Sequence record: NC_042128.1
Strand: one strand, 5' to 3'
DNA from: Escherichia phage RCS47
DNA: 64,000 nucleotides
Part shown: in pieces, positions 1-26,489 of the stretch
Layout: each line of letters opens with the position of its first letter
How positions within the stretch are numbered: position 1 is the stretch's first letter
The notes under the pieces: generated by a model
The model's database searches: none
Seen by the model: only the letters and a program-made list of their open reading frames with translations
Told to the model about the DNA's origin: nothing
Made by a program: the position numbers and the translations under genes

Positions 1-438
1 AGCAAAAACCACGCAATGATTGTCATTGAGGATTTGAAGGTTAAATACATGTCAAAGTCAGCGGCGGGAACGATAAGTCATCCGGGTCGCAATGTCCGGG
101 CAAAATCAGGTTTAAACCGTTCGATACTGGATCAGGGCTGGTATGAAATGCGCCGCCAGCTTGAGTACAAGCAGCTCTGGCGTGGCGGTCAGGTGCTTGC
201 TGTTCCGCCAGCGTACACAAGCCAGCGTTGCGCGTGCTGTGGTCATACAGCGAAAGAAAATCGCCTGTCACAAAGTAAATTCAGATGCCAGGTATGTGGA
301 TATACAGCGAACGCCGATGTAAACGGCGCTCGTAACATTTTAGCGGCGGGGCACGCCGTACTTGCCTGTGGAGGGATGGTGCAGTCAGGCCGCCCGTTGA
401 AGCAGGAACCCACCGAAATGATTCAGGCGACAGCCTGA
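1..438 (+). CDS. tnpB: IS200/IS605-family TnpB, C-terminal part (5' end lies outside the window)
   Basis: ORF runs off the window start; C-terminal zinc-finger/RuvC-like signature (CxxC ... CxxC, ...[10 protein letters not shown]); GC-rich hairpin at 445-464 typical of an IS right end. Confidence 0.7.
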
Positions 439-477
439 ACGTAGCAGGAATCCACGCCCTTCGGGGCGTGGAGGATG

Positions 478-843
478 TCACGCTGCCTCTTTAATGTTGG
501 CGGCTATCCATGCCGCCGTGTGCTGTTTAACCTGGTCCAGGTCGATGTATGTGCCAACATATTGACTCAAGTCCTGTAACGTACCGATAAATGCATCAGT
601 GCTCTGATCGACGAATTTATCAGCCAGGAAATCAGCAACCAGTTTTGGCACACCATCATGTACCGAAGGTTGTTTTTCCTCGCCACTACTGCCGCCGGAC
701 GCGCCGTACCCCATCTGTTGCATGATCTGGTCAATTTCATCGCTGATATCCAGCAACTCCATGCCACTCGCGGTAGCCGCTTTGGACATCAGAGCATCCA
801 ACTTATCGCTGAGGTCCATTAACTCAATAGCTGATAGTGTCAT
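478..843 (-). CDS. hypothetical protein, distal gene of darA-like operon
   Basis: 121-aa ORF overlapping the darA-like stop by 4 nt; assigned by position only. Confidence 0.45.
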   Translation of the reverse strand: MTLSAIELMDLSDKLDALMSKAATASGMELLDISDEIDQIMQQMGYGASGGSSGEEKQPSVHDGVPKLVADFLADKFVDQSTDAFIGTLQDLSQYVGTYIDLDQVKQHTAAWIAANIKEAA

Positions 844-22429: not shown

Positions 22430-23230
22430 ATGCAACAAACATTCAATGCGGATATGAATATATCAAACCTTCATCAAAATGTCGATCCTTCAACCACTCT
22501 GCCCGTTATTTGTGGTGTTGAAATTACGACCGACCGCGCTGGCCGTTACAACCTTAATGCTCTACACAGAGCGAGCGGACTCGGTGCCCATAAAGCGCCA
22601 GCTCAATGGCTAAGAACGCTGTCAGCTAAACAGCTCATCGAAGAGCTTGAAAAAGAAACTATGCAGAATTGCATAGTTTCGTTCGAAGGCCGTGGCGGCG
22701 GCACTTTTGCCCATGAATTGCTCGCAGTGGAGTACGCTGGTTGGATTTCTCCCGCGTTTCGGCTGAAGGTAAACCAGACATTTATCGACTATCGAGCCGG
22801 AAGATTACAACCTGCTATTCCGCAGAGTCTCCCTGAAGCTCTCCGTTTGGCTGCCGACCTGGCAGAGCAAAAGCAACGGCTGGAACAAAAAATGCTTATG
22901 GATGCACCTAAAGTCGAATTCGCCGAACGCGTTGCTACCGCCAGCGGGGTTCTAATCGGCAACTATGCCAAAGTGCTCGGTCTGGGCCAAAACTATCTCT
23001 TCACCTGGTTGCGTGATAACGGAATTCTGATCGCAACCGGTGAACGCAGGAACGTCCCCAAACAAGAATACATATCCCGTGGGTATTTCACCCTTAAAGA
23101 AACCGTGATCGATACAAGCAATGGAAGCAGGATTTCTTTCACGACTCGTATAACCGGCAAAGGTCAGCAGTGGCTGATGAAGCGATTGCTTGATACTGGT
23201 GTGCTGGTACCTGTCGCGGCAACGCGCTAA
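22430..23230 (+). CDS. kilA: KilA (KilA-N DNA-binding domain + KilA-C domain)
   Basis: 266 aa; two-domain architecture; C-terminal domain paralogous to Ant C-terminus. Confidence 0.65.
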   Translation: MQQTFNADMNISNLHQNVDPSTTLPVICGVEITTDRAGRYNLNALHRASGLGAHKAPAQWLRTLSAKQLIEELEKETMQNCIVSFEGRGGGTFAHELLAVEYAGWISPAFRLKVNQTFIDYRAGRLQPAIPQSLPEALRLAADLAEQKQRLEQKMLMDAPKVEFAERVATASGVLIGNYAKVLGLGQNYLFTWLRDNGILIATGERRNVPKQEYISRGYFTLKETVIDTSNGSRISFTTRITGKGQQWLMKRLLDTGVLVPVAATR

Positions 23231-23259: not shown

Positions 23260-24105
23260 ATGCTGGCTAAAGTCACTTTCCTGAGCTGTATAACGATGAG
23301 CGATTTTACTTTTTCTGGCTATGAATTGGCCTGCTTTGTAACACACTCCGGTCTATCCCGTAGCGCCGGGCATATCCTGTCGCAATGTGCAAATCTCGCG
23401 GCAACAACCAGTGAATACTTCATTCACAAGCCTCACCGCCTGATCGCGGCAGAAACTGGTTATAGCCAATCAACCGTCGTTCGTGCATTCCGTGAAGCTG
23501 TAAACAAAGGAATCCTGTCTGTAGAGATTGTTATCGGCGATCACCGTGAACGTCGCGCTAACCTGTACCGGTTTACACCATCCTTTTTGGCCTTCGCACA
23601 ACAAGCCAAAAATGCGCTGATTGAAAGCAAATTAAAGATCTCTTCAGCGGCAACCAAGGTTAAAGCTGTTCTCGCTAAGACATTGGCTTTATTTAATTTT
23701 TTATCCACATCCCCATGTCAAAATGATACCCCCTCCCCCTGTCAGGATGACGTGGCAATAAAGAATAAGAAGTCACAAGTTAAAAAAACAAAAAGATCAG
23801 TTTCCGACGGTGCCGGAACGTCCAGACTCAAAAAATTGACTTCGTGGATCGCTGAGGCAAAAGCAAAAGCTGACAATCTGCGGTTATCCAAAAAACGCGC
23901 TCAAAAACATGAGTTCAAGCAGAAAGTAGAGGCGGCAGCGCGGAAATATGCTTACCTGAAGAACAAGCGTTCTCCTGATATTGGCGGGATATCAAACTTC
24001 GATAATCTGCCGCATTGCATGACGGTAAACGAAGCTCTTAATGCGGTTTTAGCCAAAAATAAAGATAACGAACAATGGGGTATACCGGCAGGATTCAGAG
24101 GGTGA
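23260..24105 (+). CDS. repL: RepL-like lytic replication initiator
   Basis: 281 aa, immediately downstream of kilA in one operon. Confidence 0.5.
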   Translation: MLAKVTFLSCITMSDFTFSGYELACFVTHSGLSRSAGHILSQCANLAATTSEYFIHKPHRLIAAETGYSQSTVVRAFREAVNKGILSVEIVIGDHRERRANLYRFTPSFLAFAQQAKNALIESKLKISSAATKVKAVLAKTLALFNFLSTSPCQNDTPSPCQDDVAIKNKKSQVKKTKRSVSDGAGTSRLKKLTSWIAEAKAKADNLRLSKKRAQKHEFKQKVEAAARKYAYLKNKRSPDIGGISNFDNLPHCMTVNEALNAVLAKNKDNEQWGIPAGFRG

Positions 24106-24109
24106 TAGA

Positions 24110-24120
24110 TTGCTCTAATC
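24110..24120 (+). promoter_or_regulatory. truncated C1 operator-like motif (attgctctaat) abutting the IS left end
   Basis: first 11 nt of the 17-mer; the remainder is replaced by IS sequence. Confidence 0.3.
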
Positions 24121-25560
24121 TGGAGTCACCTGGCGTTTTCAGCGAAAAACCGCCGAGAACCCTCGCCCAATGCGGGCGGGGAGGAAAGGCGGAAAAGCCC
24201 GAAGGGCTTTAAAAATATTATTACGGTGTTAGCATAAAAACCTGTACCAATGAGCGGTGACTATGTTAAGAGCAACAAAAGTACGCATCTACCCGACACC
24301 AGAACAGGCTGAATTTATCAACGCCCAGTTCGGTGCAGTGCGTTTTGTGTACAACAAAGCTCTGCATATCAAGAAACATTCTTACCAGCGGCACCGCGTA
24401 AATTTAAACCCGCGTAAAGACCTCAAACCACTGCTTGCAGTGGCGAAGAAATCCCGCCGGTATGGATGGCTTAAAGAATATGATTCTATTGCGTTGCAGC
24501 AGGCGGTAATTAACCTCGACGTGGCTTTTTCTAACTTTTTCAATCCGAAACTGAAAGCAGGTAAACCTACCTTTAAAAGTAAACACGGCAGACAATCTAG
24601 CTATCATTGTGTTGGCATAAAAGTCCTTGATGGTGCGATAAAAATACCGAAAATCTTGCCGATTGAAGCGCGTTTACATCGTGAAATTACGGGAATGCTG
24701 AAAAGTATCACGTTGAGCCGCAGCGCAACCGGGAAATACTACGCGTCGTTACTCTGTGACGACGGGATGGAAGCGCCGGCAAAGCCCGCACTGATATCAA
24801 ATGTGACAGGGCTGGATATGGGGCTGGCGCATTTTGTCATCAAATCGGACGGCAATAAAATTGCCAGTCCCCGCCACCTAATCAATGCAAGTCGCAACCT
24901 GCGCCGGAAGCAGAAAGCACTGTCCCGTAAGAAAAAAGGGAGCGCAAACAGGCGCAAAGCCAGAATACAACTTGCAGCCGTTCACGAACGGGTAGCCAGT
25001 GCCCGTGCCGATTTCCAGCACAAGTTATCTCGCGCAATTGTTGACGAAAACCAAGCGGTAATTGTCGAAACATTGAAAACGGCAAATATGATGAAAAATC
25101 ACCATCTGGCTCGTGCGATAGGCGATGCTGGATGGTCTGGATTCATCACAAAACTGGAATACAAAGCAACAGAGAAAGGTGTGCATCTGGTGAAACTGGA
25201 TCAATGGTTCGCCAGTTCGAAAACCTGCCACTGCTGCGGTCACAAAATGTCGGAGATGCCATTACATAAGCGCATCTGGCAGTGTCCAGAGTGTGGAGTT
25301 GAACATGACCGCGATATCAATGCGGCGCTCAACATCAAACGCAAGGGCATACTGGAATTACAAGCGGCGGGACTCGTCGTTTCTGCCCATGGAGGCCAGC
25401 GTAAATCCGTCACACAGACGGTTGCGGCTTAAGAAGTGGGAAGCCTCGCCCGACAGGGCGGGGAGCAGTCACTATGGATTTTCTTTGGCGCGGTCTGGCC
25501 ATTAGGGGTCATGTTTGCTGCAACGTTTCTTCTGATGTGGATATTCACCCTTCCAGGTGA
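24121..25560 (+). mobile_element. IS200/IS605-family element encoding only TnpB (right boundary uncertain, between ~25470 and ~25770)
   Basis: tnpB flanked by GC-rich subterminal hairpins (ctcgccc..gggcgggg motif on both sides); no tnpA ORF. Confidence 0.7.
24263..25432 (+). CDS. tnpB: TnpB (RNA-guided RuvC-like nuclease of IS200/IS605 family)
   Basis: ~389 aa; N-terminal ...ATKVRIYPTPEQ..., C-terminal zinc finger CHCCGH...CPECG and ...DRDINAALNI; start taken at ATG 24263. Confidence 0.85.
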   Translation: MLRATKVRIYPTPEQAEFINAQFGAVRFVYNKALHIKKHSYQRHRVNLNPRKDLKPLLAVAKKSRRYGWLKEYDSIALQQAVINLDVAFSNFFNPKLKAGKPTFKSKHGRQSSYHCVGIKVLDGAIKIPKILPIEARLHREITGMLKSITLSRSATGKYYASLLCDDGMEAPAKPALISNVTGLDMGLAHFVIKSDGNKIASPRHLINASRNLRRKQKALSRKKKGSANRRKARIQLAAVHERVASARADFQHKLSRAIVDENQAVIVETLKTANMMKNHHLARAIGDAGWSGFITKLEYKATEKGVHLVKLDQWFASSKTCHCCGHKMSEMPLHKRIWQCPECGVEHDRDINAALNIKRKGILELQAAGLVVSAHGGQRKSVTQTVAA

Positions 25561-25770
25561 TTTCTATAGAAAAAAAGCCAGACATTGATACACCCGCTGC
25601 GGTGTGCTTGAGGCTATCTGCTTCAGGCATTCCCCGAAAAGCAGATAGAAGAAAGCCCCAGTAAACATTATGCGTCCCGCACAACGCTTAACATTAACCG
25701 GGGCCATACCTATGCTTAGCGTGCTTAGATTAATCCTCTCCTCTGTCAAGGAGCAAGGAATTTTTTACTG

Positions 25771-26367
25771 CTATGCCGCCTTTCCAGTTATGGATTCAGC
25801 GACCAGAACAACCCCATGCTTACTTCGATCTGGGTGTTCACTCCATATCTCGGATTCAGGAATACTTACCCCGTCATAGCAAACACGTTCGCCGTCAAAC
25901 GGGTAATACTGAGCGGCATCGGTGTCGAGGATAAACACTTTTAGCTCGGAAGAGCGACGGGCGATATGTTGCCAAAGAGCTTTTCCACCTTCGTATTGCT
26001 CATTATCACTGAGCAAAACAACACCAGCTTTTGAGGCTACGGTTTCGTAAACAAAAGTAGCTAAACCGACATCCCGGACAGTTCCATCAACCACGATACC
26101 TTCAATCTGGGCAACATCGCTATCCTCCCAGAACTTCCTTACCAGTACGCCTTCAAGCTGCGGGCGACGTTGAAGTTCAAGAGTAGCGACAACCTTATGC
26201 CGCATATCACCATCGATAACAGAAGGCGCAGCCTCTATTACAGCTGCAAATGGGGTTTTGGAATCCCATATAACCTGGTAAAGCACACCCTGGATGGTAA
26301 CTCCGTCCAGGATCGAAAATCGACGAGCGACAGTACCCGGGGAGTACGACATTGGAATCACAGCCAT
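25771..26367 (-). CDS. hypothetical protein (pmgF-like by position)
   Basis: 198 aa from internal Met with AAGGGGGA RBS. Confidence 0.4.
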   Translation of the reverse strand: MAVIPMSYSPGTVARRFSILDGVTIQGVLYQVIWDSKTPFAAVIEAAPSVIDGDMRHKVVATLELQRRPQLEGVLVRKFWEDSDVAQIEGIVVDGTVRDVGLATFVYETVASKAGVVLLSDNEQYEGGKALWQHIARRSSELKVFILDTDAAQYYPFDGERVCYDGVSIPESEIWSEHPDRSKHGVVLVAESITGKAA

Positions 26368-26489
26368 TTTAGAGTCCCCCTTTAACAGTACAGGCACAAA
26401 CATCTACCTCAATAATTGTAGTTTATTAGAACATTAATAATCTAACATAAAACTCCAGACAATGTTATCGATGCATTTTTATATAAAAT

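Follow-up and report, generated by a model that had tools for sequence, protein, structure and literature searches.

The 64-kb window analysed here, by which we mean the whole stretch of DNA, is part of a P1-like Escherichia coli phage-plasmid and is 100% identical to CP099080.1 around the element described below. The two sequences are not base-for-base the same, there being an indel near window position 598, so that positions were not mapped through record coordinates. Downstream of repL the window carries a mobile element of 1,330 bp (24143–25472, plus strand), which lies 3' of the sequence TTCAG, 34 bp past the repL stop codon (TGA, 24103–24105). It consists of a left end, a tnpB gene and a right end; because no tnpA was found, we classify it as a non-autonomous member of the IS200/IS605 family with the IS1341-type layout and not as an autonomous IS605-type insertion sequence. 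The element is an ordinary representative of a well-studied family. Over its full length it is 99.5–99.7% identical in seven other E. coli plasmids, and RefSeq already lists identical copies as RNA-guided endonuclease TnpB. The original prediction of a standalone tnpB element of the IS200/IS605 type was correct, with RuvC and zinc-finger motifs intact and no tnpA partner. The span it had assigned (24110–25770) has to be narrowed to the boundaries given above, which were set by comparison with relatives carrying either the empty site or a 143-bp allele; its right boundary lay 298 bp too far, since 25473–25770 is conserved plasmid backbone. This backbone includes a leader of the hok/sok type that lacks a hok coding sequence (25602–25775, plus strand; Rfam sok RF01794, 68.5 bits against a gathering threshold of 59). 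Downstream of this leader, relatives carry hokD/mokW, whereas the window has a minus-strand ORF of 210 aa. Another tnpB, different from the first (33% identity), is represented by its 3' part at positions 1–438 on the plus strand; as had been noted from the sequence, it is cut by the window start, and in CP099080.1 it is a complete gene of 402 aa.

The left end and leader of the element (24143–24262, plus strand) comprise two hairpins and the scar of a tnpA deletion. The first hairpin is subterminal and GC-rich (24160–24181), the second (24194–24210) corresponds to what used to be the terminator region of tnpA, and the scar is located around 24219–24232, with its endpoints at a short GGTGTT repeat. 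The right end contains a further GC-rich hairpin (25444–25463), whose arms are formed by 25444–25451 and 25456–25463, so that the GC-rich subterminal hairpins that had been described are indeed present on both sides. The left and right hairpins have arms that repeat each other directly, in the same orientation, and there are no terminal inverted repeats; imperfect subterminal palindromes on one strand at both ends are a hallmark of IS200/IS605 elements. The right end terminates in GTCAC, which differs from the target motif, and its 33 nt are invariant in many genera of gammaproteobacteria.

The left flank at the insertion point ends in TTCAG (24138–24142, plus strand), the transposon-adjacent motif, which is also found in the empty site of the relative L008. 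In L008 TTTTCAG is joined directly to TATGG, which makes it a seamless empty site without any target duplication, and insertion 3' of a specific tetra- or pentanucleotide without target-site duplication, together with seamless excision, is the pattern of the IS200/IS605 family. The test for a target-adjacent motif that had been proposed for this site was carried out on 16 independent left junctions and yielded the consensus 5'-(T)TYAG (N-T-Y-A-G, with T at position −5 in 12 of the 16). Position −3 of the motif covaries with the base 5' of the left hairpin foot, as expected if an internal guide sequence recognizes the cleavage site in the manner of IS608 (PMC3201880). A target preference exerted via the left-junction hairpin GGCGTTTTCAG/CGAAAAACCGCC was also considered and rejected, as the complementarity between flank and left end was not above that of shuffled sequences (12 junctions, P = 0.38).

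Three allelic states occur at this site among the relatives, namely the seamless empty site, a 143-bp segment and the element. The 143 bp, which are found in most relatives, represent the 5' half of an 81-aa phage ORF with two transmembrane segments (phrog_3772, PHROG E = 9.7e-54) that is intact in the relative L002; in the window its 3' half is left as a remnant in the backbone (25473–25588, plus strand), from which the first 47 codons are missing. The element takes the place of the 143 bp instead of interrupting the common allele cleanly. The suggestion that the insertion had replaced genes present in relatives holds insofar as these 143 bp are missing in comparison with the nearest relatives, but not for the P1/P7 genes rlfA/rlfB (rapA/rapB in P7). 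Alleles combining the 143 bp with the element, whichever came first, were not found among 5,426 E. coli genomes at a composite-query coverage of at least 80%. The flank haplotypes are mosaic and each allele is found on several of them, so that flank SNPs give no order of the alleles. The occupied allele is rare, with 3 of 66 IMG/VR contigs, about 8 complete plasmids and ~4–5% of the relatives that have the backbone. Such a low frequency is unlike that of an efficient drive.

Directly after the repL stop codon, and outside the element, lies the 11-mer ATTGCTCTAAT (24109–24119, plus strand), the core of a 17-mer that resembles the C1 operator of P1. The 17-mer with this core occurs nine times in the window (at up to 3 mismatches) compared with 0.32 occurrences expected. 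The sequence at 24109–24125 matches the asymmetric 17-mer consensus ATTGCTCTAATAAATTT at 11 of 17 positions, namely the first 11, and is not recovered at up to 3 mismatches; the next six bases, CTGGAG, deviate from the consensus and are the same in element-free relatives. The 11-mer corresponds to the annotated P7 operator Op(rap), which is itself off-consensus in its right part. Hence, the operator-like motif that had been noticed here is real, although its position is one base off (24109–24119 instead of 24110–24120). It had further been supposed that the element abuts this motif and that its insertion apparently split a repressor operator; on such a reading it would also have displaced the P1/P7 genes following repL. 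Similarity to P1 and P7 does end exactly after ATTGCTCTAAT, and in P7 the operator is followed by rapA/rapB. However, 23 bases, CTGGAGTCACCTGGCGTTTTCAG (24120–24142), separate the 11-mer from the element, these bases are common to hundreds of element-free relatives, and only 143 bp are missing with respect to the closest of them. The operator was not split, since ATTGCTCTAAT followed by CTGGAG, and more fully by CTGGAGTCACC, is identical in relatives that do not contain the element, namely L001, L002 and L008 and about 330 PLSDB plasmids. A splitting of the operator by the insertion is therefore extremely improbable. As P1 and P7 diverge from the whole lineage directly past the 11-mer and the relatives without element share this break, it represents an older module junction.

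The tnpB gene (24263–25432, plus strand) encodes 389 aa from the ATG, or 391 aa if translation starts at the in-frame GTG at 24257, so that the complete ORF reported initially was found at 24257/24263–25432. The protein contains the Pfam domains HTH_OrfB_IS605, OrfB_IS605 and Cas12f1-like_TNB, all above their curated cut-offs, and matches the NCBIfam model guided_TnpB with 343 bits (cut-off 100). It shows ~100% amino acid identity to the TnpB of ISEc46 and aligns with ISDra2 TnpB (8EXA, 8H1J) with E = 1e-74. In this alignment D185, E269 and D351 correspond to the RuvC residues D191, E278 and D361 of ISDra2, and C322/C325/C341/C344 (CxxC...CxxC) to the zinc-finger cysteines; the protein thus has the split RuvC domain (D, E, D) and the zinc finger of TnpB–omega RNA nucleases. 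A degenerate pseudogene with disrupted RuvC motifs, which had been named as the finding that would overturn the prediction, was looked for, and the ORF and all D/E/D residues proved to be intact. The ORF is likewise intact in all four copies read at the insertion site, and seven RefSeq plasmid copies are annotated as intact. A nuclease-dead, TnpB-like repressor of the TldR type was ruled out because all three catalytic residues are present. The dN/dS ratio of tnpB is 0.06–0.16, including comparisons between tnpA-less copies that have diverged to dS 0.2–0.6, and tnpB is thus under strong purifying selection also where tnpA is absent. A search of the stretch from the repL stop to the tnpB start revealed no sigma-70-like promoter, for which reason transcription of tnpB may depend on read-through from the repL operon; there is also no terminator-like site between repL and the element.

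The guide RNA had been expected at the 3' end of tnpB and the right end, and it is there that a conserved, covariation-supported structure is located. The structured part of the predicted guide-RNA (omega/reRNA) scaffold extends over 25362–25472 (plus strand), thereby taking in the final 71 nt of tnpB as well as the right end, as in OMEGA systems; the conserved structure itself covers 25362–25463. It is composed of five helices, formed by 25362–25368 with 25376–25382, 25386–25390 with 25436–25440, 25393–25400 with 25424–25430, 25407–25411 with 25417–25421, and 25444–25451 with 25456–25463. Across 17 homologues 99.3% of the cells in these helices are paired, compared to 37–53% when the partners are slid. 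Eleven base pairs show compensatory changes on both sides, several of them inside the tnpB coding sequence, and the covariation score was reached by none of 500 shuffles. No Rfam family covers the scaffold; a hit to HgcC (RF00062) over 25373–25483 was discarded as sub-threshold (17.3 bits against a gathering threshold of 50, E = 0.55). On the basis of the architecture known from ISDra2 (PMC8612924), the 16 nt of flank following the right end, TATGGATTTTCTTTGG (25473–25488, plus strand), are predicted to be the guide segment, and the same 16 nt would be the target in vacant alleles. TATGGATTTTCTTTGG occurs once on the plasmid, where it is preceded by GTCAC and not by the transposon-adjacent motif. 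The vacant site, TYAG followed by TATGGATTTTCTTTGG, is present in 63 P1-like IMG/VR contigs compared to 3 occupied ones, and the predicted target with a suitable motif is found in about 95% of related P1-like contigs; the motif reads TTCAG in the empty allele and CTTAG in the 143-bp allele. Two further IMG/VR matches to motif plus guide were dismissed as chance 20-mer matches in AT-rich sequences.

With regard to its origin, the element is a chimera derived from ISEc46. Its left 120 nt are 97–100% identical to a tnpA-less copy on an IncF plasmid and only 70–82% identical to ISEc46, whereas tnpB and the right end (24263–25472) are 97–100% identical to ISEc46 copies with an annotated ISEc46 tnpA. 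The left end and leader thus come from a tnpA-less E. coli plasmid lineage and the remainder is essentially ISEc46. The native ISEc46-type copies are inserted after TTAG (4 of 4) and the present copy after TTCAG, from which it follows that its own excision joint might be a poor TnpB substrate. The Y1 HUH transposase gene tnpA is absent, as had been predicted, both from the 64-kb window (tblastn with ISEc46 TnpA, best E = 1.9) and from the annotation of the rest of CP099080.1. Copies without tnpA were found at no fewer than five different sites with different flanks, located on IncY, IncF (leading region) and IncI1 plasmids and on another phage-plasmid type; a phage-plasmid specificity of such copies was therefore rejected. 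Roughly 800 copies occur in E. coli; in an evenly spaced 40-row sample of the matches there, the 10 copies without tnpA were all plasmid-borne and the 24 with tnpA all chromosomal. The full element is found on at least one plasmid, and full ISEc46 is present on the chromosome in about 9% of complete E. coli genomes. It might be that such an element is a stranded relic, which after the loss of tnpA is immobile and inactive and persists only by hitch-hiking on the plasmid lineage. The lack of tnpA on the plasmid, the lack of a promoter-like site upstream of tnpB and the few occupied IMG/VR contigs and complete plasmids would be in line with this, but a relic would hardly keep its ORF and catalytic residues intact, its dN/dS low even among tnpA-less copies, and its RNA helices paired by compensatory changes. 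Together with the presence of tnpA-less copies at several unrelated sites and of the occupied allele on different flank haplotypes, this makes inactivity quite improbable.

We therefore favor, with a probability of roughly 0.78, the reading that the element is a tnpA-less ISEc46 derivative that has retained RNA-guided homing or retention and transposes only with the help of TnpA supplied in trans. Its steps are modelled on the biology of ISDra2 and IS608, from which RNA production, guide, cleavage, homing and mobilisation in trans are transferred by analogy. Transcription through tnpB would deliver both TnpB and the RNA, with the scaffold formed by the last ~110 nt or more of the element and the RNA 3' end reading into the flank TATGGATTTTCTTTGG, as is the case for the right-end flank of ISDra2 (PMC8612924). 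The TnpB–RNA complex would then cut (T)TYAG followed by this 16-mer, that is, the vacant allele, which could arise by excision or be carried by a related P1-like plasmid or phage in the same cell. Repair of the cut by recombination with an occupied copy would restore or spread the element, and new sites would be reached only with a Y1 transposase provided by a full ISEc46. Precedents for this mechanism are found in PMC8612924, in a preprint (bioRxiv 10.1101/2023.11.20.567912) and in the spread of IS605 from plasmid to plasmid independently of TnpA (reviewed in PMC13565253).

A related but stronger proposal is that the element has been co-opted as a weapon or drive, whereby TnpB and its guide would cut the vacant allele of competitors during co-infection and exclude or convert them, expressed by read-through from the C1-controlled kilA–repL lytic operon. 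The predicted target in most related contigs, the position immediately after repL without an intervening terminator-like site, and the restriction of the sampled tnpA-less copies to plasmids are consistent with it, and a TnpB-dependent but TnpA-independent spread of IS605 between plasmids has been reported (reviewed in PMC13565253). The same data, however, fit plain selfish retention. The rarity of the occupied allele speaks against a strong drive, tnpA-less copies are not specific to phage-plasmids, and the full element also occurs on a plasmid; we thus regard a co-opted role as unlikely. In a more general form, TnpB and its guide RNA alone may spread on plasmids and phage-plasmids as a gene drive guided by RNA and directed at the vacant allele in co-resident or co-infecting relatives, an idea suggested by the plasmid-only occurrence of tnpA-less copies in the E. 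coli sample, by purifying selection and by the prevalence of the target, which we consider tentative and rather doubtful. If it were true, the position just downstream of the C1-controlled kilA–repL operon would make expression coincide with lytic growth, a phase in which many genomes mix.

In itself the finding of this element matters little, TnpB being among the commonest prokaryotic genes. No description of the motif of this element or of TnpB in P1-like plasmids was found in the literature. The locus nevertheless constitutes a clean natural test case, in which the three alleles (vacant, 143-bp and occupied) are found side by side across hundreds of sequenced P1-like plasmids. With a defined predicted guide and motif and no transposase, it would allow testing inheritance drive by TnpB alone between co-resident phage-plasmids, an idea so far based on engineered IS605 plasmids (reviewed in PMC13565253). 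At the level of annotation, the operator remnant after repL should be regarded as an old module junction and not as insertion damage.

Among known systems, the closest is ISEc46 (named according to the RefSeq annotation), with which the element shares tnpB, the right-end hairpin and terminus, the left-end architecture and the TYAG-class motif; it differs by the lack of tnpA and by a left end and leader from a sub-lineage that goes with TCAG instead of TTAG. The TnpB of ISDra2 from Deinococcus radiodurans is, as judged from the alignment, homologous over the full length including the catalytic and zinc-finger residues, and in both systems the scaffold extends from the 3' part of tnpB into the right end, with a guide expected from 16 nt of flank (PMC8612924). 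In contrast, the motif of ISDra2 is TTGAT and not (T)TYAG, and the present element has no tnpA in cis. The tnpB-only elements of the IS1341 group have the same order of left end, tnpB and right end, and the 1.33 kb found here fall within their range of 1,252–1,393 bp (PMC9956272); however, the present copy arose from an IS605-type element by deletion and recombination and is not an independent lineage. IS608 from Helicobacter pylori, the “peel and paste” transposon (PMC3201880), likewise has subterminal hairpins, inserts 3' of a short motif without duplication and shows covariation of this motif with the bases 5' of the left hairpin foot, but its motif is TTAC, and in the present case the putative TnpA chemistry would act in trans. 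As a functional analogy only, the free-standing homing endonucleases of T-even phages are also phage nuclease genes that target the nuclease-free allele of relatives, although recognition by the element would be RNA-guided and its homing from phage to phage is hypothetical.

The window represents a P1-like E. coli phage-plasmid, in which the TnpB element lies downstream of kilA (22430-23230) and repL (23260-24105) and upstream of baseplate and tail genes. Over 2.1 kb around the element it is 100% identical to CP099080.1, a 99,269-bp plasmid from poultry-farm faeces, and the two are not base-for-base equal, with an indel near window position 598. CP099080.1 is assigned to IncHI1B by PLSDB/MOB-suite typing, while close relatives are typed as IncY. 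Three alleles were found at the insertion site. In State A (e.g., CP098993.1), which was retrieved from plasmids with a composite query of both flanks, TTTTCAG is joined directly to TATGGATTTT. In State B (phage vB_EcoM-673R5 and Punavirus MH422554), ATTGCTCTAATCTGGAGTCACCTGGCGTTTTCAG is followed by 142-143 bp ending in CTTAG and then by TATGGATTTTCTTTGG. In State C, which is that of the window, the element is located between the same two points. Since the empty-site and the 143-bp relatives fix both junctions, the element extends from 24143 to 25472 (1,330 bp; left flank TTCAG, right flank TATGGATTTTCTTTGG, no target duplication), which corrects the limits of 24110-25770 given in the original prediction. 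In IMG/VR, 55 B, 8 A, and 3 C alleles were counted; two further matches to the site were unrelated and due to chance. PLSDB holds ~330 plasmids in one of the two element-free states (A in roughly 10%), and State C occurs at 99.5-99.7% identity in seven complete E. coli plasmids. A P1-derived fragment (hokD, baseplate gene) on the IncFIB plasmid NZ_CP019262.1 (L010:1960-2010) keeps the junction between right end and TATGGATTTT; an IS3-family insertion has removed the remainder of the element.

An 81-aa ORF with two transmembrane segments (phrog_3772, function unknown) has its start codon and its first 47 codons in the 143 bp of State B and is truncated in States A and C. Most relatives carry this ORF intact between repL and the hok/sok locus (in MH422554 at L002:1757-2002), and a remnant is present at 25473-25588 (+) of the window. 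The adjoining hok/sok-type leader (25602-25775, +; Rfam sok 68.5 bits, gathering score 59) is not followed by a hok coding sequence. Where relatives have hokD/mokW, the minus strand of the window and of phage 673R5 instead carries a 210-aa ORF (25771-26403; phrog_7522, function unknown).

It had also been suggested that the insertion splits a repressor operator. The operator-like 17-mer ATTGCTCTAATAAATTT is present in the window in nine copies at ≤3 mismatches (0.32 expected), and the one that follows repL is the counterpart of the P7 operator annotated as Op(rap). However, relatives that never carried the element have the identical sequence, ATTGCTCTAAT followed directly by CTGGAGTCACC, and the element starts only 23 bp past the 11-mer ATTGCTCTAAT. 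Thus, the break in the operator is a module junction older than the insertion and common to hundreds of plasmids rather than insertion damage. Similarity of P1 and P7 to the window ends at 24119, the end of ATTGCTCTAAT, and closer relatives match beyond this point.

The tnpB ORF (24257-25432, +; GTG start, or ATG at 24263) encodes a protein of 389/391 aa with the Pfam domains HTH_OrfB_IS605, OrfB_IS605, and Cas12f1-like_TNB. It scores 343 bits against NCBIfam guided_TnpB (cut-off 100) and matches the solved ISDra2 TnpB (8EXA, 8H1J) over its full length (E=1e-74). D185, E269, and D351 align with the catalytic residues D191, E278, and D361 of ISDra2, of which D191 is documented in PMC8612924, and C322, C325, C341, and C344 align with the zinc finger. 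No tnpA was found in the 64-kb window by tblastn with ISEc46 TnpA (best E=1.9), and none is annotated on the rest of CP099080.1. The proposal of a standalone TnpB-only element with intact nuclease motifs and no tnpA partner is thereby borne out. The 389-aa ORF is intact in all four State C copies read, and dN/dS is 0.06-0.16 among family members and 0.10-0.16 among the tnpA-less copies alone. The second, different tnpB noted at the window start is likewise real, ending at 438; it is 33% identical to TnpB of the element and is present as a complete 402-aa gene on CP099080.1, with no tnpA near it on the plasmid. Within window 1-490 (+), this gene is followed by a right end of the same architecture, with the hairpin CCACGCCCTTCGGGGCGTGG and then GGAGGATGTCAC.

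The part from tnpB to the right end matches 799 of 5,426 complete E. coli genomes, at 489 chromosomal and 392 plasmid places. In chromosomal copies a divergently oriented gene, annotated as "IS200/IS605-like element ISEc46 family transposase," is located between left end and tnpB. This gene is deleted in the window element, and the endpoints lie at a short GGTGTT repeat, of which one copy is at the 3' end of tnpA and another upstream of tnpB. The window element is a chimera: in a sliding comparison, the stretch 24143-24262 shares 97-100% identity with a tnpA-less copy from an IncF plasmid (L139) and only 70-82% with ISEc46, whereas positions 24263-25472 are 97-100% identical to ISEc46 and 55-90% to L139. 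Its TnpB is ~100% identical to that of ISEc46 and 82-88% to TnpBs of elements with the same left-end type. The arms of the left and right hairpins (D10, D17) are directly repeated, as expected for the IS200/IS605 family. Overall, the element is an ISEc46 derivative of a known family, TnpB-only; its nuclease motifs are intact, and its guide-RNA scaffold is supported by covariation. A tnpA-bearing copy close to ISEc46 was also found on the 3.3-kb contig JAHEOE010000054.1 (L054) from a MAG labelled Candidatus Paceibacterota, where it likely results from contamination or mis-binning.

For the scaffold, the last 240 nt of 17 homologues (67-99% identical) were aligned, which yielded a consensus fold of five helices at window 25362-25463. 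In these helices 99.3% of the cells are paired, compared to 37-53% with partners slid by 1-3 columns; 11 pairs are changed on both sides, and the covariation score was reached by none of 500 shuffles. Three helices are wholly or partly inside the tnpB frame (stop codon 25430-25432). This location matches that of the ISDra2 reRNA, which consists of the tnpB 3' end and the right end plus a guide of ~16 nt read from the flank (PMC8612924). No Rfam family matches the scaffold (HgcC only 17.3 bits). Among Photorhabdus, Proteus, Xenorhabdus, Pluralibacter, Endozoicomonas, Marinobacterium, Vreelandella, and others, the 33-nt right terminus is invariant, and the right flank differs in every copy bearing it. 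In several genomes (L014 and L037 from Proteus faecis; L026, L033, and L036), the element is reduced to the terminal 60-120 nt of its right end, i.e., the guide-RNA scaffold without tnpB; such remnants may represent solo ends or miniature derivatives. Many copies are present in Photorhabdus viridis and P. faecis, whose assemblies break at the right-end repeat.

The insertion sites of copies lacking tnpA are several and unrelated. In IncY P1-like plasmids (L005) such a copy follows dam, in an IncF plasmid (L139) it lies in the leading region between psiA and ardA, and others are located on another phage-plasmid type (L004) and on an IncI1 plasmid (L140). Of 740 E. coli records, 40 rows were sampled at even spacing; in this sample, which is not a census, all 10 tnpA-less matches were plasmid-borne and all 24 tnpA-bearing matches chromosomal, and the full element is present on at least one plasmid (L007). 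The best-supported reading of the mechanism of the window element, by analogy with the established mechanism of its family, is that TnpB with its guide RNA would cut the vacant allele, i.e., motif followed by flank sequence, and that recombination with an occupied copy would then restore or spread the element. Such cutting of a vacant site with recombinational retention is described in PMC8612924 and bioRxiv 10.1101/2023.11.20.567912, and IS605 has been reported to spread between plasmids independently of TnpA (reviewed in PMC13565253). The occupied allele would not be a target, since the 16-mer TATGGATTTTCTTTGG, the predicted guide segment, occurs once on the plasmid and is preceded there by GTCAC, not by the motif. 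To transpose to new sites, the element would have to be supplied with TnpA in trans. No promoter- or terminator-like site was found in the interval from the repL stop codon to tnpB, so that transcription of the C1-controlled kilA-repL operon may read through into tnpB.

A motif-like pentamer directly precedes each end of the replaced 143 bp, TTCAG on the left and CTTAG on the right. Among 5,426 E. coli genomes, none was found in which the element and the 143 bp occur together, and flank haplotypes are mosaic at the insertion site. Two scenarios would fit these data: the second motif may have been used by a transposase for an adjacent deletion, or two elements inserted at the two motifs may have recombined, which would also account for the chimeric structure. 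State A could be a seamless excision product of State C.

The motif itself was deduced from 16 independent left junctions, which come from plasmids and chromosomes of E. coli, from Marinobacterium, Endozoicomonas, and Allopseudospirillum, and from viral contigs. Positions -4, -2, and -1 are T, A, and G in all 16, position -3 is either T or C, and position -5 is T in 12. Base -3 covaries perfectly with the left-end type: left ends with CCGAGAACC go with TCAG (5/5) and those with CCGTAAACC with TTAG (11/11). The native type of the window TnpB goes with TTAG, yet the left flank of the window element is TTCAG; the element joins a TCAG-type left end to the TnpB of TTAG-associated elements. In the common vacant allele B, the pentamer is CTTAG. 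In the 16 junctions (L004-L140), G or A 5' of the left hairpin foot (GAGAACC or GTAAACC; window 24155-24159) tracks C or T at -3. This covariation, whose base is two lineages only, is what would be predicted from IS608-type recognition, in which a guide sequence 5' of the hairpin foot reads the cleavage site (PMC3201880).
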